Positions 1-38,609 of a stretch of DNA of 64,000 nt are shown here, piece by piece (the stretch's first letter is position 1; each line of letters starts with the position of its first letter). The translations under genes were made by a program, and so were the position numbers. The stretch lies in contig JBGSSW010000004.1 in NCBI GenBank assembly GCA_041736805.1, forward strand, positions 51,843 through 115,842. The letters run 5' to 3'. The DNA comes from Minisyncoccia bacterium. GTDB taxonomy: Bacteria; Patescibacteriota; Minisyncoccia; Phycocordibacterales; UBA918. The notes beneath the pieces were generated by a model. The model worked only from the letters and a program-made list of their open reading frames with translations. It did not search any database and was not told where the DNA came from.

Positions 1-318
1 GGAATGGTCTTGCTATTTGAATACGAAATACTAAATCTTAGTGAACTCATCTCTGAACGTGAAATTCTTGGAGATTACAGTGTTTTAGATACTAATTTGG
101 AAAAATGGGAGGCACTTGTAAAAGAGGAAAAAGAGGTTAGTCGTCTGTATTTTGAATTAGTAAACGCGCAACGTCAAATCATTTCAATTTTGGCTGATGA
201 AGGAGAAAGTATATCGACGGTCGAAGAAATTCAGTCTGAAGTAGCAAGAATAAAAAGTGAAATGACAGTTGCTACTACCAAGACCTTTGAGTTAAGAGAA
301 AGCCTTATTTCATTATGA
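1..318 (+). CDS. hypothetical protein; the reading frame is open from base 1, so the ORF may continue upstream of the window
   Basis: ORF track 4..318 (104 aa). The frame is open back to position 1. The stop overlaps the next gene's start (ATGA at 315-318). No recognisable motif. Confidence 0.3.
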   Translation, partial: GMVLLFEYEILNLSELISEREILGDYSVLDTNLEKWEALVKEEKEVSRLYFELVNAQRQIISILADEGESISTVEEIQSEVARIKSEMTVATTKTFELRESLISL

Positions 319-1070
319 TGAGTTTAAGTGATATATGGAAAAAATTCATAGAGTCACGTCGATCTAAAAAAACGACTACTGTTAAATACATGTTCCCATT
401 ATTTATCGGGCTATTTGCTGTTCTAGGGGCATCAGTAATTTCAGGTAGCGATTCCTATATTAGATTGGAGTCTACGCAAACTGCTGTTATGGAGGGGGAA
501 AGATTTTCCATAAACATATACGCTTTTGCAAGTACTCCTGTCAATGCTATAGATTTAACTATTACGTTTGCAACTGATATGGTTGAAATTGTGAGTGTCG
601 ATAAAGGTCAATCAGTATTAAATATTTGGACACAAGAGCCAAAAATTGAGAATGGTAAAATTACTCTAGCCGGTGGGACTTTTAGACGAGGTTTTGTCGG
701 CGAGCATTTAGTGGCTACAATTAAGGCTAAAGCAAAGTCTAATGGGACTACTGAATTTACCGTGAACGGAGCACAACTTTTGGCTGGTGACGGCAAAGGT
801 ACTCCAGTTTCAGTTACCACTAGCAATGCTTCTTCCAAAACTAGCTTTTATATTTATAATCAAAATGAAGATCCAGATGTCATATCAGCTAAACTAGGTA
901 TTAGTATAGTTGCTGATATCGACGGTGATGGTAAGGTAACTTTAAGAGATATCAGTAAGTTTCTGTCAGCTTGGAATATTCATGATAAAACCTACGATTT
1001 TAACAAAGATGGAAAAATGAATTTTATTGACTTCTCTATTATTCTAGCCAAGTCTTTCTTAGATTTATAA
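315..1070 (+). CDS. membrane-anchored surface protein with a cohesin-like beta-sandwich region and a C-terminal dockerin-type Ca-binding repeat pair
   Basis: N-terminal TM helix (FPLFIGLFAVLGASVI). C-terminus carries two dockerin-type loops, DIDGDGKVTLRD and DFNKDGKMNFID (DxDxDGxVxxxD pattern). The middle region resembles cohesin-family sequence. Confidence 0.55.
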   Translation: MMSLSDIWKKFIESRRSKKTTTVKYMFPLFIGLFAVLGASVISGSDSYIRLESTQTAVMEGERFSINIYAFASTPVNAIDLTITFATDMVEIVSVDKGQSVLNIWTQEPKIENGKITLAGGTFRRGFVGEHLVATIKAKAKSNGTTEFTVNGAQLLAGDGKGTPVSVTTSNASSKTSFYIYNQNEDPDVISAKLGISIVADIDGDGKVTLRDISKFLSAWNIHDKTYDFNKDGKMNFIDFSIILAKSFLDL

Positions 1071-1182
1071 CCCAACATAGTGCATATATCTGTTGATAAA
1101 CTGTTAATAATAGCTGTAAAAAGCTGTTATTATTGAAATGTGATGGGTTAATTTACTCCCCGCTACAAATGGCTGTCGCTTG

Positions 1183-3141
1183 ATGAGTAAAATAATTCAA
1201 AAAAGAACTACAAAAAAGCGTAAAACTACGACTGTAGCTAATTTTAGTGTGAAAAAAATAAGTGTTGGGCAAGAGATAAAAAATTCTTTGTGGCTATATA
1301 ACTTTGTTTACTCTAGTAAGATTAGTCTTTGCGTAGTATTTTTGCTATTTGTCTCTTTCAGTCTTCAAAATGTAGATAGGGCTTTTGCTGCTGATGAAGA
1401 AAAATCAAACTCAGAAACACTAGTTGAAACAACAGTTTCAACTGAGATGGTTACTGATAATTTGCCAATTAATGAAAAGTCCTCACAAGCATTGGTAAAT
1501 GACTTAGTAAGAGAAGAACAACCCACAGAAACACAAGAAATACTTATCTCAGGAATTGCATCAAGTTCCAAAGCTAAGACAGAAAATAATTCTTTAGATA
1601 GTATAGCTTCGACGTCAATCTTGAATATAAGTTCTTCTACCGCTAATTTACTTAAAAGCACAAGCACTCAATTGTCTAATTCCCTTAATAATTCGAGCTC
1701 TAAAGTAAGTATTTCCTCAGACAATAAGTTCAATGATATAAATAACTTGTCGACCACGACAGTTTTAATAATTTCTGAAAGTAAAGTACCAGATGAACAA
1801 TTACCTGAGAATGATGACCTAAATGAAGTAATGAGTTTGGATAGTGGTCAAAATGATTTTCCTGAGAATCCTTCAGAACTTAGAAATGAACTGGACACAA
1901 ATATTATTGTCGACTCACAAGCACCCTCAACCACGGAGTCAGAGCTAGTTGTAGCAGATGAGGTTATTGAAGAAATACCACTAGAAGATTTAATTACCAA
2001 TAACGAGTCTGTTTCTGTCACAAATAGTGATAGTGAATTTTCGTTCAGTAAAAATGAATGTACCCAACTCGCAAGTGGATCTTTTTATTGTCGAACTCCA
2101 AACCCGAATCAACTTAAGGATGCTTTGTTTTCAGCTCCTGATGAAGATGGAGATTTAGAAATATTTATAGTTCGTGACGGACAACAAGTTCAGGTCACTA
2201 GCAATCAGATGGATGATGCAGCTCCATACTTTGATCAAAATTCAAATACGATTGTTTGGCACCGCTTAGTTGATGACAGATTCCAAATTATATCTTTTGA
2301 TGTGGAGAGTGGAGAAGAAACAAAAATAACAAATACTAGCGAGAACAATATGGAGCCAACTAGGCAAGGTGACTATACAGTTTGGCAGCGCTGGATTGAT
2401 GGTGGTTGGAATATAATTTTGTTCAATGGTAAAACCGAAACTCAAATAACTAAAAATACTGACAACAATGTTGCACCTTATATCCACGGCTCGCTTGTAG
2501 TTTGGAATAGTCGAGACCAAGCTGGAGATAAAACCATAGAAATGTATGACATTCAGAGCAAGGCTTATCTGACGGTAGATGATCCGGATGGGATGTCTGT
2601 ATCTAATCCACGCATGGTGTTTGTTTTTGACTCACTACATCCAAATGGTGATATCGTCACCCGCGGATATGATGTGATGGCCCACAAGTTCATTGACTTG
2701 GATTCTTTGCCACGTGAGCTCCCTGAAGAGTTACCTGAAAGTGATTCCACCGGAGAAACTCGAGCTTTAATTCAAAGTAAACCATCAGTCAAGTCTGAAG
2801 TTGAAGAATTAGTCACTAGCACCTCTACAAACAATGCTTTACCACCAAAATTACCTGATATGGCATCTAGTACAGGGCTAGGGACCCTTGATTTATCTAT
2901 AAGTCAGCCAATCACTGAAACTCTTGCAACTTCTTCAATTAACACTGTTTTGCAACCTCAATTACCTGATTTAGCTACAAGTACAGACTCACTAACCTTA
3001 GATTTATCCATAAATACCAATACTGTAATTAATACAGCTGAAGTAGCTGAAAGTATGATTGAGCAAAACCCTGTAGTTGAGCCTATGTTAGATCCGATAA
3101 ATTTATCTGAAGCGACTACGACTGAAACTGTGCAAGAGTAG
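1183..3141 (+). CDS. secreted/anchored Ser/Thr-rich protein with a beta-propeller-like (TolB/PD40-like) repeat region and C-terminal tandem ~38-aa repeats
   Basis: ORF track start 1180 is TTG; ATG at 1183. N-terminal TM. Repeated ...DGxxV/W... blades (VWHRLVDDRFQII, TVWQRWIDGGWNIIL, LVVWNSRDQAGDKTIEMYD). C-terminal duplicated LPxxLPDxAxSTxxxTLDLSI motif. Confidence 0.5.
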   Translation: MSKIIQKRTTKKRKTTTVANFSVKKISVGQEIKNSLWLYNFVYSSKISLCVVFLLFVSFSLQNVDRAFAADEEKSNSETLVETTVSTEMVTDNLPINEKSSQALVNDLVREEQPTETQEILISGIASSSKAKTENNSLDSIASTSILNISSSTANLLKSTSTQLSNSLNNSSSKVSISSDNKFNDINNLSTTTVLIISESKVPDEQLPENDDLNEVMSLDSGQNDFPENPSELRNELDTNIIVDSQAPSTTESELVVADEVIEEIPLEDLITNNESVSVTNSDSEFSFSKNECTQLASGSFYCRTPNPNQLKDALFSAPDEDGDLEIFIVRDGQQVQVTSNQMDDAAPYFDQNSNTIVWHRLVDDRFQIISFDVESGEETKITNTSENNMEPTRQGDYTVWQRWIDGGWNIILFNGKTETQITKNTDNNVAPYIHGSLVVWNSRDQAGDKTIEMYDIQSKAYLTVDDPDGMSVSNPRMVFVFDSLHPNGDIVTRGYDVMAHKFIDLDSLPRELPEELPESDSTGETRALIQSKPSVKSEVEELVTSTSTNNALPPKLPDMASSTGLGTLDLSISQPITETLATSSINTVLQPQLPDLATSTDSLTLDLSINTNTVINTAEVAESMIEQNPVVEPMLDPINLSEATTTETVQE

Positions 3142-3182: not shown

Positions 3183-6100
3183 ATGAAATTTCCGGGTATG
3201 TTTTGTATGCTTAAAAGACCTATCACGCTAACTTTAGTGTGGGCAATTTTTCTGCAGGTCTCAGGAGCGACTATAATTAGCGTTCTGCTTCTTACTCCAG
3301 AAAAAGCTGAAGCTGCTGCAAAAATAATAGAACCAACTCCAAGTACAAGTGCCGTCACCCATACACAGTCTGGAACTGGGATTGTGTTTGTGACACCAGA
3401 CGTTGGTTATAAGTTTCACGTCTTTGGTGCTGTTCCGGATTCAGGCAAGTGTGTATATCGTAAAACTACTGACGGTGGAATAAGCTGGGGGTCACAAGTA
3501 GTGGTTGACTCACAGACAGACTGTCAGGGGGTTTCAGTTTGGTATGATCGTTGGACCCCATCTGATACTGGAACAATAATTCATATTGCTACGTATGATA
3601 CAAGTGCAGACGAAATTTACTACAATAGTCTCGACACTACTTCTGATACTTTGCTGCTTGTCACTTCTACTAGTACTATGTTAAATCTTGTCACGGCATA
3701 CGCTGCTGGTACAAATAATGTTTCAATTACAAAAGCCACTAATGGAAACCTGTATATTAATATTGATGATGCTAATGGAACTTTTATTCGTACCTGTACA
3801 TCTACTTGCTCAATAGGTAGTAATTGGACCGCCGCTGGTACACCACCGCAGGGAAACGCCAATACCGCTAGCATCCTGATGCCTCTTTCAGGTGGGAGTG
3901 TTATGTTGGTAAACCGTAGTACCGGAGGAGTAGTGCGTTCCAGTATTTGGAATGGTGCTTCCTGGTCCGCATTTACTAATATTGATACTTCAGCAGTAGT
4001 AAACACGACCTATGATGTCGGTATGTCACTGACTCTTTCAACCAGTACAAATGATATCTACATGTCATATATTGCCGATAATAATGACTTTATCACTAGT
4101 GATCATGACTTAAGGACGGCTTTGTATAACGGCAGTAGTTGGTCGACATCTACAGCAGCAATACTGACTGATACTAGTGGTCGCGGACTACATCAGGTTA
4201 CAATGTCACGTGACGCAAGTACGGGTGATATTTATGCAGTTTACGCGGTACGGACAGATATTACTAATGCTGCCTCAGCCAATGTTTATTATGCTCGTTC
4301 GACCGACAACATGACTAGCTGGGAAAGTGAGGTAGGTCCAGTTAATACCGTCCCAGGAAATCTCTACGGTATCGACACTAACCCAATGTTTTACAGTAGA
4401 CTTTTTGTGGCTTGGTTTAATAATCTGGCTCTAGATGTCATCGGTGATAGTATTTTACCCACTCCTACCGATACTTTAGTTGCACTTGAACCTACGCCAC
4501 AAACCACCGCTTCAGGACATACGATAGCTGGAGCTGCAACTGTGTTTGTGACAGACCAAATTGGTTATCGTTTTCTACGTTTTGGGGCTGCTCCAGATAG
4601 CGGTAAATGTGTCTATCGTAAGACTCTGGACGGAGGTTTACACTGGAGTAGTCAGGTGGTGGTTGACGCACAGACTGACTGTTCGGGCTTGGCGGTTTGG
4701 TATGATAAATGGACACCGGGAGATACTGGCAGTTATATTCATATTGCGACCTACGATATAGGTAACGATGATATATTTTATAATCGCCTCGACACTGCTA
4801 ATGATTCATTGCTTCTAACTACTTCTACAACTACCATGCCGGCTACGGCCAGTGTTTTAGCAGTCGGAACAAACTATGTTGCCATCACTAAAGCAACTGA
4901 CGGAAAAGTATATGTAAATATTGATGATGCTAACGGTACGTTCTTACTTTCATGTGCAGCTACCTGTGATAATTCAAATAATTGGGCAGCTGTGGGTACT
5001 GCACCACAAGGAAATGCAGATAGCTGGAGTATCATGGCTCCATTATCAGGGGGAAACGTGATGCTTATTAACCGTTCGACTACCAATCAGATACGTTCTA
5101 GTATTTGGAATGGTTCAATTTGGTCTTCTTTTAATACAATCGACGCCGCTGCAGTCAGAAATACTGTTTACGACGTCGGTATGTCCGCTACTATAGATAT
5201 AAGCACCAATGACATTTATCTAGCATATGCCACAGACAATGATAATTTTACGACGGCAGACCACGATATAAAAACTGCTAAATATACTGGGGGAGCTTGG
5301 TCAGCTATGACTAATATCATAACTAATGACCCTGCCCGAGGTGTTCTTCAGGTAGCGATAGGGCGCGATCAAAATAATGGTGATATCTACACGGCCTATT
5401 CAATTCGTTCCCAAATTTCAACCACTACTTCCGCTAATGTCTTCTACTCACGATCAACTAATGGGATGACCAGTTGGGAAGCTGAAGAGGGCCCGATAGG
5501 ACGCGTTGAAGGTGATTATTATGGTTTGGATATGAATCCAATGTCATACGAAAGATTGTATGTTAGTTGGTTTGATAACGTGACTACGGTCAGAGACATT
5601 TATGGAAATACTCTGGCCGACATTGGACCCGATACAACCTTGAGCTCGCTAGGTACACAAAAAAGCGAGACTTTAGCTGGAGAAAATAACTTTTATGTCG
5701 GAGGTTCATTTATGTTAACGACCTTGGTGTCTAAAAACGTTAACACAATAATAATTGCTGAATCAGGGACAATTCAAGCTCGAAACAATATAAAAAATGT
5801 AAGTTTATATTACGACTTTGATACCTCGGCTCCCTATGACTGTGAAAGTGAGTCATATGGCGGAGGTGAAGCCCAGTTTGGGACAACTGTGGCAGGAGGT
5901 TTCTCTGGAGCTAACGGCGTCGCTTCATTTAGTACCTCTCCAGTCGGAATAACAGGAACAAAGAGTATGTGTATCTATCCTGTTTTCGATATCCAGTCCG
6001 GTGCCCAAGATGGAGACACGATTGAGATTTCCGTTCTAAACCCAGAGACCGACGTTTTGATTTCCGGAGTGTTTGAAGTATTTCCAGCTACTGAAGTAAG

Positions 6101-9100
6101 TATTCCTGGTACCACGACCATCGTTGATCCTCAGCTAACTCAGTCCGGTTTTCATTGGCGATTAGATAATGGCTCAGAAATAACAGCTTCATCTGCGACG
6201 GCGGGAGTTGAAAACACCAATTTAACAGCTTTGAAGATAGGAATTCCAAGGCGAGTTCGTCTCGATGTTTCGAATCAAGGTTCCACCACCTCTGTACCAG
6301 CCGCTTTTAGACTTGAGTACGGTGAAGCTGCTCCAACTTGTAACGATACAAGTTCCTGGAGTGTTGTCGGTGAACCAAGTTCAGACTGGATTATGTATGA
6401 CTCAAGTAATTTAACTGATGGTACAGACACAACTAATATTCTAGTTGCAAATGGAGGTGTAACTGACCTTGGAACGAACTTTATAGGTAGTAATGGGGGA
6501 GTCAGAGACGTAAATAATACTTTCGGAACAACCACATTAGATATAGATGATTTCGTTGAGCTAGAGTACTCAATCATGGCTTCTTCTTCGGTGGTAGAAG
6601 GTTCAACTTACTGTTTTAGAGTTTCCAGAAATGGCATTCCACTTGGTTCATATTTGGAATTTCCAAGAGTGACAATCGCGGCTGATGTGTTGGTGCAGGG
6701 TTATGGTACCCAAATAGCCACTACATCAGTTTTAGCAACTAATGTATATGCTGGAGGAGGAATCAGAATTGTAGAAAATAGTAGCAATCGTGATGTAACA
6801 AGCGTAAAGCTTTCTGAGTTTGGAACCATAGACAGTGCTACCAGTATTAAGAATCTAAAATTATTCTACGACCTTGATACCTCTGGACCGTATGACTGTG
6901 CTAGTGAATCGTACAGTGGGGGAGAAGCTCAGTACGGCTCTACAGTTAGTGATGGATTTAATGGAGTCGGCGAAACGGCTTCATTTACAGATGCAGTAAA
7001 TATATCGACAACAGAAACCCTTTGCTTATATGTGGTCTATGACGTCGGTGATTTGGCTCAAAATGGTCAGACTTTAGATATTGGGGTTAATTCTGGGTCG
7101 TCAGATGTGACTGTTACGGGAGTTGCAAGTGTCGGACCTTCAGGACTGATTAGTATATCAGGAGAAACAATTATCGAAGGGGCTATTTTATCACAAATAA
7201 ATTATCACTGGAGAAGTGACAATGGTACCCAATTAACTGCCTCGTCTGCTACCGCTGGAGTTGAAAATACGCCAATTGTGGATTTTTCTCAAAATTCTCC
7301 AATTCGTTTAAGATTTGCAGTTACAAACACCGGTCTTGCTTCTTCAGTACCAGCTCGTTTTCAACTTGAGTACTCTCCTAAAATCACTACTTGTGATATG
7401 GCCACTGTTTGGACAGATGTGAACAGTACGCTTGACGGTTGGGATATGTATAACTCGTCATATTTAACTAATGGGGAAACAACAACAAATATTGCTGTTG
7501 CTAGTGGAGGAGTTTCAAATGGTTCGGGGACATTTATCTCTAGCAATGGTGGAGTAAGGGACACTGAGTCGCTTTCCGCTACTACTTCTATTCCAGTAGG
7601 AGATTATCTTGATGTCGAATACAGTATTACTTCAACTGATCTTACTTCTTACAGTACTACTTACTGCTTTAGAGTATCTTCAAATGTTTCATCTGCCTTT
7701 GGTTCATATGTTCAATATGCTGAAATTACCACTGCCGCTAAAAGAGATTTTAAGATTCAAAGAGGCTCAGTTCAAGTGAGTGGGACTTCGGCCACAGTGG
7801 TCGCTGGAGTCGACTATACAGCTCCGGCTAGTACTTCGCTAGCCTTTGTTAGAATCACTAATTCCCATCATACAGGAGCGGGAAATTCAACAGCCTCAAC
7901 AAATCAAAACAGTGACGATGTGACAGCCTATATCTCAAATCCAGGCAACATTGCTACTAACTTTACTATTTCTCGTCCTAGTTCGGCCACGAGTAATACT
8001 CGCGTTGATTGGGAAATAATTGAATTTATCGGCAATTCTGGCACAGATAATGAAATGATTGTGCGTGGAGTTGGAACGGTTTCTTATACAACTACGTCCC
8101 TAGTGGCAACGGGTACAGTTTTATCAAACATTAGTAATAATAGTAAAGTGGTAGTTTTTGTCACTGGGGCTAGTGATAGAAATACTTCACGTAATTACTA
8201 TGCCGGATTAGTAACTTCAGCCTGGGATACTAATACAAATTCACCTGTCTTTACTCGAGGAGCCAATGGTTCAAGTATCGCTGATATAAGCTACGCAGTG
8301 GTAGAGTTTGTTGGACCAAATTGGAATGTCCAAAGAGTAGAACATACTTACATAGCATCTGGTGTAACTGAGACAGAATCAATTACAGCTGTAAATAGTC
8401 TAGCAAAAACTTTCCTTCATACACAAAAAAGAATGGGAGCCACGACTAACGTTGTTCACTATGGACATCAAGTATGGTTATCAAGTATAGGGGCTGTTTC
8501 ATTTCAGTTGGAGACTGGAGCCAGTGTAGCAGTCGGACAGACTTCAGTAGCCTGGATAATTGAAAATATCCAAGGTGGAATTGGGGCCATGAATATTCAA
8601 AGGTCTAATGGTAATACGACTGGTGGGACAGGACCGTTATCACTTTCTGTAGTGCTCTCTACCCCACTTGTAGCAGTAAATAATACTTCCATCATGGCAA
8701 ATACCAGCGGGGCTGGAGTAAATACTAGTTATCCTAGACCGATGGCGGGTTTTACTATCACTAGTACTTCCACCTATCAAATTTGGCGTAGTAATACTGG
8801 AACAACTTTAACTTACAGAGTCGAGCTAGTGGAATGGCCAGTAGCAGACTTAGCTATTCGGCAGAATTACTATCGCTTCTACGTCGATAATAATTTGCTA
8901 ACCCCTACGGACCCTTGGCCAGCCGGAGTTATTGATCTTGGTGAAAATACCTCCATTACTACTGCTGATGAACCACTTGGTAGTGGAGAACATTTAAGGA
9001 TAAGAATGAGTTTAAGAACTTCAAATGCAGCCATGCCCGCTGGTTTACAAAACTTCAAACTCCAGTATGCCCTAAGAAGTACTACTTGTTCGGCTGTTTC

Positions 9101-10508
9101 CGGAGGTAGTTGGGCAGATGTTGGTCCCGCTAGTAGTGGTAGTGTTTGGAGAGGTTATGCTGCAACTGGAACAACAGACGGAACCTCGCTTTCTATTGAT
9201 CCACCAACTGGGGGGGGCTTGCTGATTTCAGTTTCTGATCGAGCAGGATCGTTAGTGGAGGAAAATCCTTCTGCCGTCAATCCATATCCTGTGGCTGAAG
9301 GTGACAATATTGAATACGATTGGCATTTAGAACAAAACGGAGCTAATCCACAAAGCACTTATTGCTTTAGGGTTGTAAGAAGTGATAGTACTCCACTAGA
9401 AGGCTATAGTAACTATCCTCAAATTAGAACTGCCGGCTTCACTCCACTTTCAAAAAATTGGCGTTGGTACGATGATGCAGAAAATGAAACCCCATCTACA
9501 GGACTTGCCCTTGAAAATGTGGCCCCAATTGATATTGCTAACACTGATACTTTAGCTCTGCGCGTTAGCGTAAAAGAAAACAAGAATGCCCAAGGCGATA
9601 ACATTAAATTTAAGTTACAGTTTTCTGAAGATGTAACTTTTTCTAATCCAATTGATGTTGCTGCAACAAGCAGCTGTCAAGACCAATCTTTTTGGTGCTA
9701 TGTTGAAGGAGGAGGTGTAGATAATAATTATATAACAACTCAACTCCTTTCTGACGGAGATGGTTGCGTATCTAGTGTTGGAGCTGGTTGTGGACGACAT
9801 AATACAATTCCAGACTCATTAACTACACACACACATTTCGGTAGTGACACACAAGAGTATAGTTTTATGATTCGCCACGTTGCTGCTAGAGTCAATGCGG
9901 TATATTACTTCCGCCTCTACGATATAACTAACGATTCACCTGTGTATGTAGCCGTAGGTGAAACTTATCCATCGTTAGTAACAGAAGGACCCTTATTACA
10001 GTTGTCTTTGGCAGGCCTACCAGCTGGTACTACTACTGCAGGAGTTATGACGGATATTTCTACTACACCTACAGGGATTAACTTTGGAAATTTAAACTTG
10101 AATATAGAATATATTGCTGCTCATAGAGTCTCTGTTGAAACCAATGCCACAGAAGGATATCAAGTTTTAAATTTTGCTAGACAACAATTATTGAATTCAA
10201 ATGGAATTTCTATCCCTTCAGTTAGCGGCACAAATTTAATTCCCCTTAGTTGGTCTACTGCTTGTAACGCATCTTCAACCGGATGTGTAGGTTACCATTC
10301 CACTGATCCTACTTTAAGCAATGGATCGACTCGTTTTGCAGCTACAGACACCTATGCTGCACTTGAAACTAACCCAGCAGAGGTGATGTATAGTTCAATT
10401 CCATCTTCCGATACTCATGATATAGTTTACAGAATAAAGGTAGGTGAATTACAGGCAGCTGGTGATTATGAAACGGAAATAGTTTATCTAGCTGTACCTT
10501 CTTTTTAA
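3183..10508 (+). CDS. giant (2441 aa) secreted cell-surface protein with two tandem sialidase-like BNR/Asp-box beta-propeller modules plus further duplicated modules
   Basis: Single uninterrupted ORF with N-terminal signal/TM. Asp-box motifs TTDGGISW, TLDGGLHW, STDNMTSW, STNGMTSW. Large internal duplications visible in the translation. YCFRV motif occurs three times. Confidence 0.7.
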   Translation: MKFPGMFCMLKRPITLTLVWAIFLQVSGATIISVLLLTPEKAEAAAKIIEPTPSTSAVTHTQSGTGIVFVTPDVGYKFHVFGAVPDSGKCVYRKTTDGGISWGSQVVVDSQTDCQGVSVWYDRWTPSDTGTIIHIATYDTSADEIYYNSLDTTSDTLLLVTSTSTMLNLVTAYAAGTNNVSITKATNGNLYINIDDANGTFIRTCTSTCSIGSNWTAAGTPPQGNANTASILMPLSGGSVMLVNRSTGGVVRSSIWNGASWSAFTNIDTSAVVNTTYDVGMSLTLSTSTNDIYMSYIADNNDFITSDHDLRTALYNGSSWSTSTAAILTDTSGRGLHQVTMSRDASTGDIYAVYAVRTDITNAASANVYYARSTDNMTSWESEVGPVNTVPGNLYGIDTNPMFYSRLFVAWFNNLALDVIGDSILPTPTDTLVALEPTPQTTASGHTIAGAATVFVTDQIGYRFLRFGAAPDSGKCVYRKTLDGGLHWSSQVVVDAQTDCSGLAVWYDKWTPGDTGSYIHIATYDIGNDDIFYNRLDTANDSLLLTTSTTTMPATASVLAVGTNYVAITKATDGKVYVNIDDANGTFLLSCAATCDNSNNWAAVGTAPQGNADSWSIMAPLSGGNVMLINRSTTNQIRSSIWNGSIWSSFNTIDAAAVRNTVYDVGMSATIDISTNDIYLAYATDNDNFTTADHDIKTAKYTGGAWSAMTNIITNDPARGVLQVAIGRDQNNGDIYTAYSIRSQISTTTSANVFYSRSTNGMTSWEAEEGPIGRVEGDYYGLDMNPMSYERLYVSWFDNVTTVRDIYGNTLADIGPDTTLSSLGTQKSETLAGENNFYVGGSFMLTTLVSKNVNTIIIAESGTIQARNNIKNVSLYYDFDTSAPYDCESESYGGGEAQFGTTVAGGFSGANGVASFSTSPVGITGTKSMCIYPVFDIQSGAQDGDTIEISVLNPETDVLISGVFEVFPATEVSIPGTTTIVDPQLTQSGFHWRLDNGSEITASSATAGVENTNLTALKIGIPRRVRLDVSNQGSTTSVPAAFRLEYGEAAPTCNDTSSWSVVGEPSSDWIMYDSSNLTDGTDTTNILVANGGVTDLGTNFIGSNGGVRDVNNTFGTTTLDIDDFVELEYSIMASSSVVEGSTYCFRVSRNGIPLGSYLEFPRVTIAADVLVQGYGTQIATTSVLATNVYAGGGIRIVENSSNRDVTSVKLSEFGTIDSATSIKNLKLFYDLDTSGPYDCASESYSGGEAQYGSTVSDGFNGVGETASFTDAVNISTTETLCLYVVYDVGDLAQNGQTLDIGVNSGSSDVTVTGVASVGPSGLISISGETIIEGAILSQINYHWRSDNGTQLTASSATAGVENTPIVDFSQNSPIRLRFAVTNTGLASSVPARFQLEYSPKITTCDMATVWTDVNSTLDGWDMYNSSYLTNGETTTNIAVASGGVSNGSGTFISSNGGVRDTESLSATTSIPVGDYLDVEYSITSTDLTSYSTTYCFRVSSNVSSAFGSYVQYAEITTAAKRDFKIQRGSVQVSGTSATVVAGVDYTAPASTSLAFVRITNSHHTGAGNSTASTNQNSDDVTAYISNPGNIATNFTISRPSSATSNTRVDWEIIEFIGNSGTDNEMIVRGVGTVSYTTTSLVATGTVLSNISNNSKVVVFVTGASDRNTSRNYYAGLVTSAWDTNTNSPVFTRGANGSSIADISYAVVEFVGPNWNVQRVEHTYIASGVTETESITAVNSLAKTFLHTQKRMGATTNVVHYGHQVWLSSIGAVSFQLETGASVAVGQTSVAWIIENIQGGIGAMNIQRSNGNTTGGTGPLSLSVVLSTPLVAVNNTSIMANTSGAGVNTSYPRPMAGFTITSTSTYQIWRSNTGTTLTYRVELVEWPVADLAIRQNYYRFYVDNNLLTPTDPWPAGVIDLGENTSITTADEPLGSGEHLRIRMSLRTSNAAMPAGLQNFKLQYALRSTTCSAVSGGSWADVGPASSGSVWRGYAATGTTDGTSLSIDPPTGGGLLISVSDRAGSLVEENPSAVNPYPVAEGDNIEYDWHLEQNGANPQSTYCFRVVRSDSTPLEGYSNYPQIRTAGFTPLSKNWRWYDDAENETPSTGLALENVAPIDIANTDTLALRVSVKENKNAQGDNIKFKLQFSEDVTFSNPIDVAATSSCQDQSFWCYVEGGGVDNNYITTQLLSDGDGCVSSVGAGCGRHNTIPDSLTTHTHFGSDTQEYSFMIRHVAARVNAVYYFRLYDITNDSPVYVAVGETYPSLVTEGPLLQLSLAGLPAGTTTAGVMTDISTTPTGINFGNLNLNIEYIAAHRVSVETNATEGYQVLNFARQQLLNSNGISIPSVSGTNLIPLSWSTACNASSTGCVGYHSTDPTLSNGSTRFAATDTYAALETNPAEVMYSSIPSSDTHDIVYRIKVGELQAAGDYETEIVYLAVPSF
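3336..4470 (+). repeat. intragenic repeat A1 (~375 aa module with two Asp-boxes) of the giant surface gene
   Basis: Residues ~52-430 (TPSTSAVTHTQSGTGIVFVTPDVGYKFHVFGAVPDSGKCVYRKTTDGGISW...) are paralogous to residues ~431-800. Boundaries approximate. Confidence 0.6.
4473..5580 (+). repeat. intragenic repeat A2 (second copy of the Asp-box module)
   Basis: TPQTTASGHTIAGAATVFVTDQIGYRFLRFGAAPDSGKCVYRKTLDGGLHW... parallels A1 along its whole length. Boundaries approximate. Confidence 0.6.
5790..6700 (+). repeat. intragenic repeat B1 (module starting NVSLYYDFDTSAPYDCESESYGGGEAQFG, ending YCFRVS)
   Basis: Paralogous to B2, ~352 aa downstream. Boundaries approximate. Confidence 0.5.
6846..7760 (+). 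repeat. intragenic repeat B2 (IKNLKLFYDLDTSGPYDCASESYSGGEAQYG ... YCFRVS)
   Basis: Same motif order as B1 (FYDxDTSxPYDC, HWRxDNG, ATAGVENT, YCFRVS). Boundaries approximate. Confidence 0.5.
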
Positions 10509-10512
10509 AAAT

Positions 10513-11535
10513 ATGAAAATTAAACTAACTAAAACATACTTACTTATCGTAGTTTTTATACTCACCAGCACTCCATTTAACTTGACTTTGGCAGCAAACT
10601 TTTCAGTATCTCCTTTAATAATCGATATAGAAACAGAAGCAAGAGATTCACTTTCTAAAACAATAACTTTGACCAGCCAGCAAAACAATTCACTCAGATT
10701 ATTTGCCTCCGTGCATGAAATTACACTTGGAGATGAGAGCGAAATTAAGTCTTTCGTTCCAGCCTCAATGAGTGACAGAACTACCTCTCCGACAAGTTGG
10801 ATACAAGTCAGTCGAGCAAGAATTGACTTAAAAAGTGATGAAAAAAGAGAAATTCCAGTAACGATAAAAATAAATCCTAATACATTACCAGGTCTTTATC
10901 ACGCTTACATTGGTTTTGCTCCTGGCCCCAATCGGGATGTGGCGGAAGCAACAATTTTGGCTGGACAGGGAAGCGGCGTAGTAATCAGAATACTTGTAGG
11001 CGGCAAACAAGAAGAATTTTTAAGACTAGTTTCATTTAGAACCGATCGCTTTAGTTACAAGGATTCTAAAGGAGAAATTGTCTATGTTTTAGAAAATACT
11101 GGTGATGTGCCTTTGTCACCTAAAGGAGATATTATTATATATGACTCGCAAGGAAGAGAACTTACAACTCTAGAGTTGAATCAAGATGAAACCAAAGTCA
11201 TTAATCCAGGCGAAACCTTAGAGTACAGAGAAAATCTTCCTTTTATTAACCATATTGGTAAAAATAAGGCTTTTTTATCACTGGATTACGGAAAAGAAAA
11301 TAGAGCTTCTGTTTATGACACTAATTTTTACTATTCAATCCCATGGTTATATATGCTAGTAATAATGTTATTATTAGCAACGGTTCTTACGGTTTTAATT
11401 ATATTATTCAGACGCAGCACGTCAGAAAGAGAATTAACTGAACCAGAAGCGTATGACTTACCTTTATATGTTAGAGACAACAAGGACCACAGCGAATACG
11501 AACATGATATTGACCTTAAGAAAAAAGATTCTTAA
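10513..11535 (+). CDS. cell-surface protein, DUF916/DUF3324-like (CscA-like of Gram-positive WxL loci), signal peptide plus C-terminal TM anchor
   Basis: Signal peptide (IVVFILTSTPFNLTLA). Two beta-rich domains with DUF916/DUF3324-like composition. C-terminal TM (WLYMLVIMLLLATVLTVLIILFRR) and short basic tail. Immediately follows the giant adhesin-like gene. Confidence 0.45.
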   Translation: MKIKLTKTYLLIVVFILTSTPFNLTLAANFSVSPLIIDIETEARDSLSKTITLTSQQNNSLRLFASVHEITLGDESEIKSFVPASMSDRTTSPTSWIQVSRARIDLKSDEKREIPVTIKINPNTLPGLYHAYIGFAPGPNRDVAEATILAGQGSGVVIRILVGGKQEEFLRLVSFRTDRFSYKDSKGEIVYVLENTGDVPLSPKGDIIIYDSQGRELTTLELNQDETKVINPGETLEYRENLPFINHIGKNKAFLSLDYGKENRASVYDTNFYYSIPWLYMLVIMLLLATVLTVLIILFRRSTSERELTEPEAYDLPLYVRDNKDHSEYEHDIDLKKKDS

Positions 11536-13150
11536 TACCACGTACCTAGTCCTACTGGTTTTACTGATTTCAATTTCATCAACCAGTAATGTTCAAGCGC
11601 AAGAAGCGTTAACCTTAAGTATTTCTCCGTCAATTTTTGACATGTCGGCCAATCCGGGACAAGAATGGCGTAGCTCGATCAGAGTTATCAATGTAAACAA
11701 ATACGAACTAACGGTTTATTTAGATGTTGTGAATTTTTTACCACAAGGGGAAAGTGGAGGCGGTAAATTCATTTCAACTTTAGAAGGAGAACAAAATGGT
11801 TCCACTATTGCCGAATGGTTTACAATCAGTAAGGAACCTGTCACAATTTTACCTGAACAATCGGTAGAGATTCCCTTTTCGGTGAACGTTCCACTTGACT
11901 CAACGCCTGGCGGGCACTTTGCTGCCATTTTGGTTGGGACAAAACCTACGGCCACAGAAAATGGACAATCAAGAGTACAAACATCACAGATGGTGACATC
12001 TCTATTTTTTGCTCGAGTAGCCGGTGATGTTATTGAGTCAGGAACAATACGTGAATTCATTACTACTAAAAAATATTTAAACTCACCTGAAGCAACTTTT
12101 GAACTGCGTTTTGAAAACAAAGGTAATGTCCATTTAAAACCACAAGGCGATATAAGAATTACAAATATGTGGGGAGAAGAAAGGGGAGTTATTCCTATAA
12201 ACCAAAATTCTAATTTCGGAAATGTTCTCCCTGACACAGTTAGAAAATTTATTTTTACCTGGAAAGGTGAATGGTCGATATCTGACATTGGCCGTTACAC
12301 TGCTATAGCAACTTTAGCATATGGTTCAGATGGTAGACAATTTACCAACTCAAGAACAAGTTTCTGGGTAATTCCTTATAAACTTATACTTGGGGTCCTT
12401 CTAGGGTTGGCCATTTTTGTATCTATAGTATCTTGGCTAATACGTTTGTATATTAGACACATGCTTATTATGGCGGGTATAGATGTAAATGAATTTAAAA
12501 ACTCAAAACAGACAAATACTTTAGCAATGCGTTATAGAAAGCATCAAAAAATTAAGTTGCATAGTTCTATAAAAGTAGCCTACACAAATTTACAACAGCA
12601 TGTTTTACAAGCTAAAGGTTTATCAAATAAATATAAAGCCGCTTTTAATTATATTTTCCAGTACAAGTTACTGATAATTGCCATTGTATTAATAGTTGCG
12701 ATGATAATTCTTTTAGTTGTATATGTAATAAATGCTAATACCTCATATCGTAGCTATGAGGTTGCTTATGTAAATTCGGACGAGACTGTTACTCTAACTT
12801 CAGAGGATATTATTTACAATAAATTAATAGTCGAAAGGGGATTGCAAGAAGTTGAAATCAATCCGAACTTACCAAAGTTAAAAATTATTAATCGAAGCGG
12901 AAAACCGGGAGTAGGAGCTGAGACAAGAATAAAGTTAGAAACTAAAGGGTATCAAGTAATTAGCTTAGCGGCCGACTTTAGTTCCCCTCAAGTTAGAACG
13001 GTAATAGTTTATCCAACTGATGATGAAAAAGAGGCTTTGAAATTAAGCCCTAGAATAGGAAATGCTCTACTTTCAGTTGATACTGAGCCAAGTAATTCAG
13101 AAGTAAATACAATTACAATCTATATTGGAAGTGATATGGCAACGAATTAG
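11504..13150 (+). CDS. second DUF916/DUF3324-like surface protein, fused through two TM helices to a C-terminal LytR_C (LytR/CpsA/Psr C-terminal) domain
   Basis: ORF track 11453..13150; I start it at the internal ATG 11504, which begins a signal peptide (MILTLRKKILNTTYLVLLVLLISISSTSNVQA). TM at ~GVLLGLAIFVSIVSWLI and a second at ~LLIIAIVLIVAMIILLVVYVI. C-terminus KLKIINRSGKPGVGAETRIKLETKGYQVISLAADFSSPQVRTVIVYP...ITIYIGSDMA matches the LytR_C consensus. Confidence 0.5.
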   Translation: MILTLRKKILNTTYLVLLVLLISISSTSNVQAQEALTLSISPSIFDMSANPGQEWRSSIRVINVNKYELTVYLDVVNFLPQGESGGGKFISTLEGEQNGSTIAEWFTISKEPVTILPEQSVEIPFSVNVPLDSTPGGHFAAILVGTKPTATENGQSRVQTSQMVTSLFFARVAGDVIESGTIREFITTKKYLNSPEATFELRFENKGNVHLKPQGDIRITNMWGEERGVIPINQNSNFGNVLPDTVRKFIFTWKGEWSISDIGRYTAIATLAYGSDGRQFTNSRTSFWVIPYKLILGVLLGLAIFVSIVSWLIRLYIRHMLIMAGIDVNEFKNSKQTNTLAMRYRKHQKIKLHSSIKVAYTNLQQHVLQAKGLSNKYKAAFNYIFQYKLLIIAIVLIVAMIILLVVYVINANTSYRSYEVAYVNSDETVTLTSEDIIYNKLIVERGLQEVEINPNLPKLKIINRSGKPGVGAETRIKLETKGYQVISLAADFSSPQVRTVIVYPTDDEKEALKLSPRIGNALLSVDTEPSNSEVNTITIYIGSDMATN

Positions 13151-18978: not shown

Positions 18979-21033
18979 ATGCCATTTAAGATATCTACAG
19001 AAAAAACCCCGGCTGGCGATCAGCCAGAGGCTATCAAAGCTCTCGTAAAAGGGATTAAAGCTGGCCACACCCACCAGACGCTTTTGGGCGTTACGGGCTC
19101 TGGTAAGACGTTTACGGCTGCTAATGTCATACAACAGATTCAAAAACCCACCTTAGTAATTGCTCACAACAAGACACTAGCCGCCCAACTAGCTCAAGAG
19201 TATCGTGATTTCTTCCCAGAAAATGCGGTACATTATTTCGTTTCATACTACGACTACTATCAACCAGAGGCCTACATGCCCACTTCTGATACTTATATCG
19301 AGAAAGAAGCCCAAATCAACGAAGAGATTGATAGACTGCGTCACGCCTCCACTCAAGCTCTACTGACCAGAAATGATGTCATTATCGTAGCGTCTGTGTC
19401 GTGTATTTACGGCTTAGGGGCTCCAGCCGAATATCTCAAACGACATTTAAAAATTGAACGTGGTTACGAGACCACCCGCACTAATATTCTCCGCACTTTG
19501 ATAGCAATGTATTTTCAAAGAACTAACGCCGATTTAATTCCAGGAAATTTCAGGGCGGTTGGTAATACTGTCGAAATCATGCCCACCAATGAGCGAGTTA
19601 TTTTTAGACTAGGTTTTGCTGGTAATAAAGTTTCTTCCATTACAAAAATAGACGCTGTCACCAGAGCCATTATTTCTGAACCGGAAACCTTTTTCTTATT
19701 CCCTGCCAAACACTTTGTTACTCCAGAAGAGGAGCGAAAAATTGCCATTAGCGAAATTCAAACTGACTTAGACAAACAGTTAAATAAATTCAAAAAAGAA
19801 GGTAAATTGTTGGAATCTGAAAGACTTCGTCGTCGCACTCAGCATGATTTGGCTTTGATGCGTGAGGTTGGTTACTGTAACGGTATTGAAAACTACTCTC
19901 GTCATTTTGATAGACGTAAGGAAGGTGAACCACCCTACACTCTATTGTCATATTTCCCACATACCAAGGATGGTAAGCCTGATTTTCTCACTATTATTGA
20001 TGAGTCTCATGTCACGATTCCACAAATCAATGGCATGTTTGCGGGTGATCGCTCACGCAAGGAAACTTTAATTGAATTCGGTTTTCGTTTACCCAGTGCT
20101 TTAGACAATCGACCACTACGCTTTTCTGAATTTGAAGAGAAGGTTGGTCAAAGAATTTATACTTCTGCAACTCCAGGTAAGTATGAATACGAGCAATTGA
20201 ACAAAAGCAAGATACCAATGATTGAACAAGTAATCAGACCAACGGGACTAGTAGACCCAATAATTGATATTAGAAAAATTACTGAAGTAGGCAATTATCC
20301 AGGTCAGGTTAAAGATTTTATTGAAGAGGCCATAAAGGTCATTAAGGGCGGTACTAGGGTTTTGACCACAACCCTCACAAAGAAGATGGCCGAGGACTTA
20401 TCAGAATTTTTGACAGAGCGAGGAATTAACGCTAAGTATATTCATAGTGACATTGACACAATTGAACGAATTGAAATATTGACTGACTTTAGACGCGGTA
20501 AATTTGATTGTCTAGTAGGGGTCAACTTACTCCGTGAAGGTCTCGACTTACCCGAAGTGGAACTAGTGGCAATTCTTGATGCTGACAAGCAAGGTTTCCT
20601 TCGTAGCGAAACAGCTTTAATTCAAACTATTGGTCGAGCAGCCAGAAATATCAATGGAAGAGTTATTCTTTACGCAGACGAAATGACTCCAGCCTTAGAA
20701 TATGCAATTGGAGAAACGAATCGGCGCCGCGACAAGCAACTTGCTTACAACAAAGCAAACGGTATTACTCCTAAAACAATCGCTAAGGAAATAAAATCTA
20801 TTACAGACCAAATGCGGACCGAACATGATGAAACCGTGGATACTTTATTAAAAGTTGATATGGACATTTTTCTTAAAAATCCAAAAGTCGTCTTGAAGGA
20901 TAAAAAACGACAAATGGATGAGGCTGTATCTGTCCTAGACTTTGAAACAGCAGCGATAATTAGAGATGAACTTAAAATTTTAGAAGAAACCTTACTGAAA
21001 AATAAGAAGTCAAAACTTAAGTCAAAACGTTAA
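18979..21033 (+). CDS. uvrB: excinuclease ABC subunit B
   Basis: GVTGSGKTFT (Walker A), QLAQEYRDFFPENAVHYFVSYYDYYQPEAY, helicase motifs, C-terminal UVR domain (ETAAIIRDELKILEE). Confidence 0.95.
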   Translation: MPFKISTEKTPAGDQPEAIKALVKGIKAGHTHQTLLGVTGSGKTFTAANVIQQIQKPTLVIAHNKTLAAQLAQEYRDFFPENAVHYFVSYYDYYQPEAYMPTSDTYIEKEAQINEEIDRLRHASTQALLTRNDVIIVASVSCIYGLGAPAEYLKRHLKIERGYETTRTNILRTLIAMYFQRTNADLIPGNFRAVGNTVEIMPTNERVIFRLGFAGNKVSSITKIDAVTRAIISEPETFFLFPAKHFVTPEEERKIAISEIQTDLDKQLNKFKKEGKLLESERLRRRTQHDLALMREVGYCNGIENYSRHFDRRKEGEPPYTLLSYFPHTKDGKPDFLTIIDESHVTIPQINGMFAGDRSRKETLIEFGFRLPSALDNRPLRFSEFEEKVGQRIYTSATPGKYEYEQLNKSKIPMIEQVIRPTGLVDPIIDIRKITEVGNYPGQVKDFIEEAIKVIKGGTRVLTTTLTKKMAEDLSEFLTERGINAKYIHSDIDTIERIEILTDFRRGKFDCLVGVNLLREGLDLPEVELVAILDADKQGFLRSETALIQTIGRAARNINGRVILYADEMTPALEYAIGETNRRRDKQLAYNKANGITPKTIAKEIKSITDQMRTEHDETVDTLLKVDMDIFLKNPKVVLKDKKRQMDEAVSVLDFETAAIIRDELKILEETLLKNKKSKLKSKR

Positions 21034-21039
21034 TAAACA

Positions 21040-21068
21040 TAATTTTTGTTGCATATAAAGTGTATAAT
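21040..21068 (+). promoter_or_regulatory. putative sigma-70-type promoter; perfect -10 TATAAT at 21063-21068 upstream of the 21076 gene
   Basis: TATAAT hexamer 8 nt before the ATG. The -35 is weak. If real, the transcript would be nearly leaderless. Confidence 0.3.
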
Positions 21069-21075
21069 CTAAACA

Positions 21076-23382: not shown

Positions 23383-23477
23383 GCCAAAATTACTACTTTA
23401 TTAACTTTTGCATCTGGCTGTAAAATAGTTATACTTGTTCGATAGAAACCTTCATCATCAAATGAAGGCGTTATGAT

Positions 23478-26120: not shown

Positions 26121-26129
26121 ATAACCACT

Positions 26130-27371
26130 ATGGATAAAAAGTCTATACTAAGAAAGAAATTGCCTGATAAACCTGGAGTATATTTCTTCTTAGGAAAGAA
26201 TAAAAAGATACTTTATATTGGGAAAGCGACATCAATAAAGAATCGAATAACTAGTTATTTTGGCTTAGACATTGTAGAAAAAAGATCTAACTTAATTGAA
26301 AAAATGGTTCAAGAGGCAATTTCTATTGATTACACTGAAACAGACAGCGTGGTTGAGGCTTTAATATTAGAGTCAAACCTAATACGTTCCCATAAACCTT
26401 ATTATAATACTAAAAGTAAAGATGATAAAACTTATAATCATTTAATAATTACTAATGAAGAATGGCCAAGATTACTTATTGTCCGTGAAAGCGATTTAAC
26501 AGAAAAATTCTCACCCGAAGATATAAAGTATCAATTTGGTCCTTTCCCCAATGGTTCGCTATTTAAAGAGGCCCTCAGAATTATTAGAAAGCTTTTTAAA
26601 TATTACGATTCCAAGAACTCTGTTGGGGAAGAAAAAACAAAAATTGAAAGAGGCCGTATAGATTTTAACCGTCAAATTGGACTTTATCCTAGTTTGATAG
26701 GTCGTAGTGAATATTTAAAAACTATTCTACATATAAAGCTTTTCTTTGAGGGTAAAAAATCAAAAATAATTTTAGACTTAGAAAAAGAAATGTCTATTAA
26801 GGCAAAATTACAAAAGTTTGAAGAAGCTAACGAAATTAAAAAAAGGATATTTGCTTTAAAGCACATAGAAGACATTGCTTTAATTAAAATAGAGAGAAAT
26901 ATGCCTGATGTTCCTATTTTTAGGATTGAAGCTTATGACATAGCTCATCATGCTGGGAAAGATATGGTGGGTGTTATGGTAGTAATACAAAACTCAGAGG
27001 CCAAAAAGTCAGAGTATCGTAAATTCAAAATTAAAACCCTAAAAAGTGCAAATGATCCAGCGGCCCTTACGGAAGTCCTAGAACGAAGATTTTGTCATCA
27101 GGAGTGGGCTATGCCTGATTTAATTGTTGTCGATGGAAATTTAATACAAATTAACGCCGCCGTACGAATTTTGTCAAAACTTATGCTAGAAATACCAGTT
27201 TTAGCAGTGACCAAGGACAAGAGTCATAAACCAATAAAAATTGTCCCAGAGAGTGGACTAGCACTTAAATATAAGTATGAAATTTTGATGGCGAACGCAG
27301 AGGCACACAGATTCGCCATAAACTATTATCGAAACCTTAATCGAAAAACTTTTTTAAAGAGCAGTAAGTAG
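26130..27371 (+). CDS. uvrC: excinuclease ABC subunit C, short form (GIY-YIG + UVR + RNase H-like endonuclease domain; no C-terminal HhH pair)
   Basis: GIY-YIG segment PGVYFFLGKNKKILYIGKATSIKNRITSYF. UVR-like FEEANEIKKRIFALKHIE. Endonuclease domain RIEAYDIAHHAGKDMVGVMVV...SEYRKFKIK, VVDGNLIQINAA, EAHRFAINYYR. Ends at 413 aa with no HhH motifs. Confidence 0.8.
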   Translation: MDKKSILRKKLPDKPGVYFFLGKNKKILYIGKATSIKNRITSYFGLDIVEKRSNLIEKMVQEAISIDYTETDSVVEALILESNLIRSHKPYYNTKSKDDKTYNHLIITNEEWPRLLIVRESDLTEKFSPEDIKYQFGPFPNGSLFKEALRIIRKLFKYYDSKNSVGEEKTKIERGRIDFNRQIGLYPSLIGRSEYLKTILHIKLFFEGKKSKIILDLEKEMSIKAKLQKFEEANEIKKRIFALKHIEDIALIKIERNMPDVPIFRIEAYDIAHHAGKDMVGVMVVIQNSEAKKSEYRKFKIKTLKSANDPAALTEVLERRFCHQEWAMPDLIVVDGNLIQINAAVRILSKLMLEIPVLAVTKDKSHKPIKIVPESGLALKYKYEILMANAEAHRFAINYYRNLNRKTFLKSSK

Positions 27372-38602: not shown

Positions 38603-38609
38603 AAAATAT

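Follow-up and report, generated by a model that had tools for sequence, protein, structure and literature searches.

The window analysed here is a 64,000-nucleotide (nt) stretch of a Minisyncoccia bacterium genome (GenBank assembly GCA_041736805.1, contig JBGSSW010000004.1, positions 51,843 to 115,842 of the forward strand), and near its start lies a gene for a giant protein of 2441 amino acids (aa). An initial annotation described this protein as built by large internal duplications, which tiled self-BLASTP confirmed. A protein identical to it (P0001) occurs in public assemblies. All coordinates refer to the window, and residues are numbered on the giant protein. The gene and its parts are as follows.

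3183..10508, + strand: giant open reading frame (ORF), uninterrupted, ATG start, 2441 aa; the coordinates take in the stop codon
3183..3314, + strand: signal peptide, residues 1-44, read from the sequence
3315..4472, + strand: module A1, predicted beta-propeller copy 1, residues 45-430 (phmmer domains; 57% identical to A2; weak BNR_2/BNR_4 matches)
3465..3488, + strand: Asp-box-like hairpin TTDGGISW, residues 95-102
4299..4322, + strand: degenerate Asp-box STDNMTSW, residues 373-380
4473..5630, + strand: module A2, predicted beta-propeller copy 2, residues 431-816 (AlphaFold2 (AF2) predicted local distance difference test (pLDDT) 88; Foldseek)
4623..4646, + strand: Asp-box-like hairpin TLDGGLHW, residues 481-488, placed by the model between strands 3 and 4 of the first blade
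5454..5477, + strand: degenerate Asp-box STNGMTSW, residues 758-765, placed by the model after strand E321-328 in the sixth blade
5631..6683, + strand: module B1, residues 817-1167, an 'a' beta-sandwich (YYDFDTSAPYDC) followed by a 'b' beta-sandwich (HWRLDNG ... YCFRV)
6684..7736, + strand: module B2, residues 1168-1518, a second a+b pair, 44% identical to B1
7737..8852, + strand: middle region, residues 1519-1890, all-beta (AF2 pLDDT ~90)
8853..9440, + strand: C1, residues 1891-2086, third b-type domain (YYRFYVDNN ... YCFRV)
9441..9938, + strand: C2, residues 2087-2252, fourth b-type domain (NWRWYDD ... YYFRL), with two additional Cys pairs
9939..10505, + strand: C-terminal ~190-aa domain, residues 2253-2441 (profile search)

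For self-comparison, the protein was cut into 200-aa tiles, each of which was compared by BLASTP with the remainder of the protein, and significant internal repeats were recovered. Residues 35-456 match residues 424-839 at an offset of 386 aa (42-64% identity per tile, E down to 3e-82), and residues 814-1182 match residues 1165-1536 at an offset of 351 aa (~44% identity, E down to 4e-58). The two duplications therefore stand as first described, with the module sizes corrected from ~375 and ~350 aa to 386 aa (A1 and A2, 57% protein identity) and 351 aa (B1 and B2, 44%). The second half of the 351-aa unit (residues 1010-1166) also matches residues 1921-2084 (29% identity, E 6e-10), and residues 2087-2263 constitute a fourth domain of the same ~180-aa b-type (C1 versus C2, hhalign probability 97%, P 4.6e-11), each copy ending in Y[CY]FR[VL]. 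The motif YCFRV had been reported as triplicated and does occur exactly three times (1143, 1494 and 2060), but the b-type domain has four copies, the last ending in the variant YYFRL at 2241. A motif of the type FYDxDTSxPYDC is found as YYDFDTSAPYDC at 876 and as FYDLDTSGPYDC at 1228; like HWRxDNG and ATAGVENT it is present in two copies, all spaced 351-352 residues apart, in agreement with the ~352 aa originally given. These comparisons support a modular protein that grew through internal duplication. In the middle region, four ~90-aa segments have similar terminal strands (VDWEIIEF, SYAVVEF, VAWIIEN and YRVELVEW); repeats within residues 1519-1890, suspected from these recurring strand motifs, are unsupported (best pairwise hhalign P 0.0013).

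The initial annotation further held that the expansion was recent and that tandem DNA repeats might cause assembly collapse or recombination, and neither proposition is borne out. DNA identity is 60% between the A copies and 53% between the B copies, and the longest exact words that they have in common are 17 nt (A) and 11 nt (B). Only 47% of the residues identical between A1 and A2 also share a codon, which suggests saturation at synonymous sites. Tandem Repeats Finder (TRF) found no tandem array, and a repeat finder returned only stretches of 70-80% identity at spacings of 1158 and 1053 nt. Given the low DNA identity, the short shared words and the empty TRF result, collapse or recombination between the copies is unrealistic.

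The distribution of the modules likewise speaks against a recent origin. A homologue search returned 179 proteins, all named ones being from Patescibacteria (Nomurabacteria, Paceibacterota and Minisyncoccia), and relatives of the giant protein are encoded in at least 165 GTDB species genomes. Length classes, module counts and a family alignment were derived from the best 120 of the 179. Both B modules and all four b-type domains are present in 120/120 homologues, down to 44% identity, and conservation is even along the entire chain. The proteins fall into two length classes: 98 of 2010-2072 aa have one A module and 22 of 2413-2477 aa have two. The single propeller of the ~2050-aa homologues occupies the A2 columns of the family alignment, and module A1 is found only in the two-copy clades. 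In a neighbour-joining tree of 142 A modules, which carries no support values and so leaves the exact number of events uncertain, the giant protein and the five proteins closest to it contribute 12 copies, which group together to the exclusion of all others, and the other 16 two-copy proteins sit elsewhere, among single-copy sequences. This placement indicates that an extra propeller was gained at least twice, each time before its clade diversified. A1 and A2 each keep 33 of the 34 family-invariant residues. By these sequence comparisons, the extra propeller is a lineage-specific yet old tandem duplication that doubled the predicted head, with both copies under constraint. Giant surface proteins often contain internal duplications of long standing; internal duplication itself is ordinary, and nothing in the giant gene is recent or unstable.

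Duplication is also seen at the level of whole genes, as two giant-protein paralogues occur in several Paceibacteria genomes and the pair is adjacent on the contig in three cases. Pairs with their contigs are L038/L043 (JBGSYZ010000005.1), L030/L058 (JBCCYW010000001.1) and L037/L064 (CAYGKO010000002.1); further pairs are L011/L066, L036/L070 and L048/L071.

The N-terminus of the giant protein consists of a basic n-region, a long hydrophobic core and an AEA end, with AEAA kept in the family consensus, and cleavage probably follows A44. The cysteines form conserved pairs within domains, and a redoxin/DsbA gene adjoins the operon. Together with the signal peptide and its conserved AEAA, these features suggest an extracellular location, and the protein is probably secreted. 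Its sequence contains no C-terminal transmembrane (TM) segment.

Turning to the predicted folds, residues 431-1167 (A2 and B1) were modelled with AF2 from a 37-sequence alignment (mean pLDDT 88.3). In this model, DSSP assigns ~26 strands to A2 in seven groups of four; from these groups, and from best TM-scores to 7-bladed proteins, the A2 propeller is probably seven-bladed. Foldseek searches of the PDB with A2+B1 matched a sialidase, the 7-bladed Photorhabdus lectins, GH145 and integrin alpha propellers (E 1e-9 to 2e-13), as well as putative neuraminidases and GH43. The top match was the large form of the Micromonospora sialidase, 1eut (propeller, Ig-like and galactose-binding domains; E 2e-13), and target TM-scores were 0.63-0.73 for the Photorhabdus 7-blade lectins versus 0.41-0.43 for neuraminidase-like structures.

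Each propeller carries one TxDGGxxW string and one degenerate S-T-[DN]-x-M-x-x-W string, in two of its ~7 blades. Two SxDxGxxW Asp-boxes had been assigned to each near-copy; two Asp-box-like strings per module are indeed present, but one of each pair is degenerate, and a literal SxDxGxxW is absent from the giant protein (chance expectation 0.02 per protein). In A2, the strings lie after the third strand of the first and sixth strand groups of the AF2 model, which is the expected hairpin position. Because the Asp-box-like motifs fall on a predicted propeller, and in A2 on a confident one (pLDDT 88), the propeller part of the earlier reading stands. Pfam BNR_4 scored 13.4-14.7 bits on A1 against a cut-off of 27.3, A2 alone gave no match, and a few homologues have a precomputed PF13088 match. 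With BNR/Asp-box propellers (the 1eut sialidase of Micromonospora viridifaciens, GH145 BT3686 and Photorhabdus PHL/PLL), the giant protein shares a predicted propeller with Asp-box-like hairpins, and with 1eut it also shares the order of propeller, Ig-like domain and another beta-sandwich domain. It differs from them in having just two degenerate Asp-boxes per propeller and Pfam scores below the gathering threshold; sialidases, moreover, have six blades, whereas the giant protein probably has seven. The predicted propellers would bind a ligand, possibly a glycan.

The remainder of the chain, residues 1519-2441, was modelled by AF2 as all-beta (mean pLDDT 88.9), and Foldseek matched it to integrin alpha legs, PrgB Ig-like domains, the SspB C123 stalk, a mastigoneme and alpha-2-macroglobulin domains. 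As modelled, this region is a chain of beta-sandwiches. Both halves of the giant protein thus match the integrin alpha ectodomain (propeller, thigh, calf-1, calf-2), with which it shares a 7-bladed head on a beta-sandwich leg. However, identity is 7-9%, TM-scores are low and Pfam finds no FG-GAP repeats; the low identity and TM-scores restrict the likeness to architecture. The polarity is also opposite, as integrin alpha has a C-terminal TM segment, whereas the giant protein has an N-terminal signal peptide and no TM segment.

Annotation libraries contribute little to this picture. Pfam, searched with the whole protein and with seven separate modules, has no model for the B modules, the middle region, C1, C2 or the C-terminal domain; NCBIfam returned nothing on the giant protein; and no library match in it was found to FG-GAP, cohesin, dockerin, SLH or other known S-layer anchors. 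Sequence searches of the PDB with the giant protein, a profile of its C-terminal domain and a profile of the 340-aa family encoded downstream gave nothing meaningful, and in literature searches the giant protein family is not described.

The C-terminal domain was characterised with a profile of the 190 residues that end the protein; run against 1.84 billion representatives of 50%-identity clusters, it matched at least 1595 clusters at E<=1e-3 and 134 at E<=1e-30. Among the matches listed, the domain always ends at the last residue, in proteins of ~220 to 5226 aa with variable N-terminal parts, and the few named members are all from Patescibacteria. Domains that anchor or assemble proteins behave in this way, staying constant at the C-terminus while the N-terminal parts vary, and we propose that this one is an attachment or assembly module. 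Pfam searches with 22 members gave no match at E<=10. The same C-terminal domain is carried by a 382-387-aa operon protein of loci L002, L003 and L004 (E 1e-19 to 2e-22), whose gene lies seven genes upstream of the giant gene in three related genomes. Small proteins with this domain (L002 2286-3434, L089 5941-7077 and L090 6598-7614) also have a conserved ~170-aa N-terminal domain with the motif ...SDTxSxxxxxxxxNHTIxFTTPTG...TITFPxxF..., and constitute a distinct unannotated ~340-385-aa Patescibacteria family; a word-indexed homologue search with their profile gave 12 matches.

The genes flanking the giant gene in the window are the following.

315..1070, + strand: upstream gene, 251 aa, one cohesin and one dockerin (Pfam Cohesin 1.2e-6, Dockerin_1 2.1e-6); position conserved
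1180..3141, + strand: upstream gene, 653 aa, N-terminal TM segment, low-complexity linker and TolB-like propeller repeats (NCBIfam beta_prop_Msarc 7e-8, TolB 2e-4); position conserved
10513..11535, + strand: downstream gene, 340 aa, signal peptide, two predicted beta-sandwich domains, TM helix and short tail; WxLIP-like
11453..13150, + strand: second gene downstream, ORF of 565 aa, paralogous to the 340-aa protein but with an extra TM segment and LytR_C (2.2e-8)

Four loci with giant proteins 48-100% identical to that of the window share this gene order on one strand, with ~11 co-directional genes conserved at 48-62% protein identity. The order begins with the ~380-aa small C-domain gene, followed by genes for proteins of ~350 aa, ~580 aa (cohesin/Big_13), ~220 aa and ~250 aa (cohesin and dockerin). 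Next come a 580-670-aa protein (TM segment and TolB-like propeller), the giant protein and proteins of ~340, 425-565 and ~160 aa, and then redoxin (with DsbA in one locus), an AI-2E transporter, PGA_cap, FKBP, TGT and UvrB. The two WxLIP-like ORFs of the window overlap by 83 nt, and the public contig starts the second at the equivalent of 11504 (548 aa), so its true start is probably downstream of 11453. The cohesin+dockerin protein (window 315-1070; L002 7055-7810) and its ~580-aa cohesin/Big_13 neighbour (L002 4618-6366) have fixed operon positions. These neighbours hint at cellulosome-style protein-protein docking in the surface cluster; unlike cellulosome components, the giant protein itself has no cohesin or dockerin match in Pfam, and only the neighbouring 251-aa and ~580-aa proteins have them.

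The two downstream proteins provide a link to a known type of surface cluster. Their families are paralogous (hhalign E 4e-24), and the 340-aa protein has 120 homologues of 325-361 aa and is conserved beside the giant gene. The 565-aa protein matched Pfam WxLIP_PGBD with E 7.7e-6 and 26.4 bits, 0.9 bit below the cut-off of 27.3. Compared by hhalign with Firmicutes WxLIP, the 340-aa family alone gave P 2e-4 (controls 0.015-0.5), and a broadened Patescibacteria profile compared with four authentic WxLIPs gave a probability of 94.5% and P 8e-8 over 213 columns; hmmsearch scored 31.4 bits to the E. faecium WxLIP. In size and domain architecture, too, the downstream proteins match WxLIP, which has DUF916/PGBD, DUF3324/HBD and a TM helix in about 340-365 aa. 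The 340-aa family profile alone did not reach EfmWxLIP1 in the PDB. On the strength of these profile comparisons, both downstream proteins are distant homologues of WxLIP, the DUF916-DUF3324-TM protein. Moreover, two unrelated Patescibacteria loci chosen solely for other C-domain proteins, L089 and L090, also encode a small and one or more large C-domain proteins beside a ~325-aa WxLIP-like protein.

WxL clusters of Firmicutes (Siezen 2006, PMC1534035; Hassan & Williamson 2022/2023, PMC9772566, PMC10599100) are defined by two proteins, one small and one large, that have a C-terminal domain in common, together with a DUF916-DUF3324-TM protein (PMC9772566, PMC10599100). The cluster described here resembles them in that its small and large secreted proteins have in common an all-beta domain of ~170-190 aa placed strictly at the C-terminus, the large protein arranges beta-domains with binding modules in a roughly linear series, and one or more neighbouring genes code for WxLIP homologues of ~340 aa made up of a signal peptide, a pair of Ig-like domains and a TM helix; the arrangement recurs in several loci. 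It differs in its host phylum (Patescibacteria, as opposed to gut Firmicutes), in having two WxLIP paralogues, one of them fused to LytR_C, in lacking an LPXTG protein or sortase, in co-encoding cohesin/dockerin proteins, and in the length of the giant protein, which is 2-4 times that of described large WxL proteins (500-1000 aa).

From the logic of WxL clusters, in which small and large proteins share a C-terminal domain and are accompanied by a DUF916-DUF3324-TM partner, we propose a mode of attachment for the giant protein. Its most likely function is that of a surface-anchored binding stalk, and for the anchoring mechanism itself our confidence lies somewhat on the favourable side of even. 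Read from the distal end inward, the mature chain would comprise two propeller heads (sialidase/lectin-like), a beta-sandwich rod and the ~190-aa C-terminal domain, with the C-terminus probably proximal to the cell. The rod would contain ~10-12 beta-sandwich domains, arranged as two a+b pairs, the ~370-aa all-beta middle region and two further b-type domains. The propellers would act as ligand-binding heads, and the C-terminal domain would hold the giant protein on the cell by associating with the two membrane-anchored WxLIP-like proteins encoded directly downstream, and probably also with the small co-operonic protein bearing the same domain. Physical interaction between the giant protein and the WxLIP-like proteins is suggested by analogy with WxL clusters. 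Adhesion or surface binding had been the initial interpretation as well, and it fits the signal peptide, the paired conserved cysteines and the predicted beta-sandwich stalk.

Several observations weigh against a WxL-cluster-like, ligand-binding stalk. The C-terminal domain is unlike WxL domains in that the WxL model does not recognise it and both Trp-x-Leu motifs are absent: a hidden Markov model (HMM) built from 11 authentic domains of Bacillus, Enterococcus and Companilactobacillus plasmid WxL clusters gave E >= 0.04 against 255 copies of the C-terminal domain, and hhalign between the two gave P 0.02-0.027, with unrelated controls at 0.009-0.5. The small C-domain gene would lie upstream of the window and is seen in related loci only, as the identical public contig stops before it. 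On the side of the heads, Pfam BNR_2 scored 19.4 bits on A1, below its cut-off of 31.4. Finally, even conservation and near-fixed length are features seen more often in components of structural lattices or machines than in host-specific adhesins.

The identity of the C-terminal domain as a WxL domain (PF13731) was considered separately and is unproven by Pfam, the WxL HMM, a reciprocal HMM and hhalign with two profiles and controls. A low-stringency alignment to WxL is co-linear, with an FG motif, 'TNAxxGYxV' opposite 'DxRGxxGWxL' and the last strand 'GxYxxxIxY' opposite 'YxxxLTWxL', so that Tyr stands at the position of the WxL Trp; we regard this alignment as a lead, not evidence. As WxL homology is not detectable, we describe the system as one that functions in the manner of a WxL cluster, without classing the giant protein among the WxL proteins.

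Among the alternatives, the one that fares best, though we consider it unlikely, is a pilus-like fibre. The C-terminal domain would then be a pilin-type Ig-like module polymerising via donor-strand exchange, with the small ~380-aa protein as the major subunit, the giant protein as a tip or side subunit, and the two-Ig WxLIP-like proteins as PapD-like chaperones or bases. FimH and PapG join pili through their pilin domains, and the sharing of a C-terminal domain by small and large proteins of one operon is consistent with a similar arrangement. WxLIP, whose two Ig domains lie at right angles, has likewise been predicted to insert a beta-strand into WxL (PMC10599100), and a pond fibril whose producer is not known assembles by donor-strand exchange (PMC11494351). 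The operon of the giant gene resembles donor-strand-exchange systems (TLP-1a/b 9ikj/9ikk, chaperone-usher pilins, TasA and archaeal bundling pili) in encoding small secreted one-Ig-domain proteins. However, a PDB search found no sequence similarity to these subunits, no N-terminal or other donor strand and no TapA-like gene were identified, the cluster contains no usher- or sortase-like gene, and AF2 folds the C-terminal domain confidently as a monomer. A wider version of this proposal, to which we attach a similarly low probability, is that the C-terminal domain represents a new strand-complementation surface-assembly system of monoderm Patescibacteria, in which the small ~380-aa proteins would polymerise into fibres, giant proteins would form adhesive tips and WxLIP-like proteins would serve as chaperones or anchors. 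If so, the fibres would be like the unassigned donor-strand-exchange fibrils of pond water and, by extension, the WxL clusters of Firmicutes would descend from the same ancient system as a branch that has since diverged.

A structural role as an S-layer or envelope lattice component, in which the propellers and sandwiches would make lattice contacts and would not belong to a ligand-binding adhesin, appears less probable still. The near-invariant length and the uniform conservation over 2000+ residues in 165 species are in keeping with a lattice, as are the fixed position of the giant gene beside the housekeeping genes tgt, uvrB, FKBP and redoxin and the co-operonic cohesin/dockerin proteins, which suggest a multi-protein scaffold. 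However, a dozen-domain rod with terminal propellers would be an unusual S-layer design, library scans found no SLH or other known S-layer anchoring domain, and two clades tolerate an extra 386-aa head, which is easier to accommodate at a distal tip than in a lattice unit. Least probable, and improbable in our view, is a surface-displayed glycoside hydrolase harvesting sugars with sialidase- or GH145-type propellers on a stalk: Foldseek matches include bacterial sialidases, putative neuraminidases, GH145 and GH43, invariant Asp, His, Arg and Trp residues, among them W506, D508, W510, H520, R631 and D654, are present in the propeller and a Laminin_G_3/sialidase-N-like protein is encoded elsewhere in the window, but BNR family sequence matches are sub-threshold and the best TM-scores are to non-enzymatic 7-bladed lectins and not to neuraminidase-like structures.

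Three further regions of the window contain genes of interest. The protein encoded at 48878-51208 (+ strand), 776 aa long, has three domains of the Laminin_G_3 (ConA-like lectin) type (E 4e-71), matches a sialidase N-terminal domain less strongly (1.3e-7) and is probably another surface carbohydrate-binding protein. At 35495-40154 (- strand), a gene for an AcrB-type resistance-nodulation-division (RND) transporter (1035 aa, E 2e-162) adjoins one for an HlyD-like membrane-fusion protein (514 aa). Components of tripartite pumps are normally tied to an outer membrane, and the pair is of note in a patescibacterium regarded as monoderm. The genes uvrB, uvrA and uvrC lie close together at 18979-27371 (+ strand), with a 768-aa ORF without a Pfam match (21076-23382) between uvrB and uvrA.

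Most Paceibacteria/Parcubacteria are uncultured, and how they attach to hosts or surfaces is not known. As a surface-anchored binding stalk, the giant protein family would be a conserved, syntenic candidate for the host or surface interface of Paceibacteria, and it carries no Pfam or NCBIfam annotation. A further outcome is the definition of a C-terminal domain, common among Patescibacteria, that has no annotation. To our knowledge, WxLIP homologues have so far been described essentially in Firmicutes; here, distant homologues are found partnered with this C-terminal domain in Patescibacteria, which may point to an evolutionary link between WxL clusters and pilus-like assembly.

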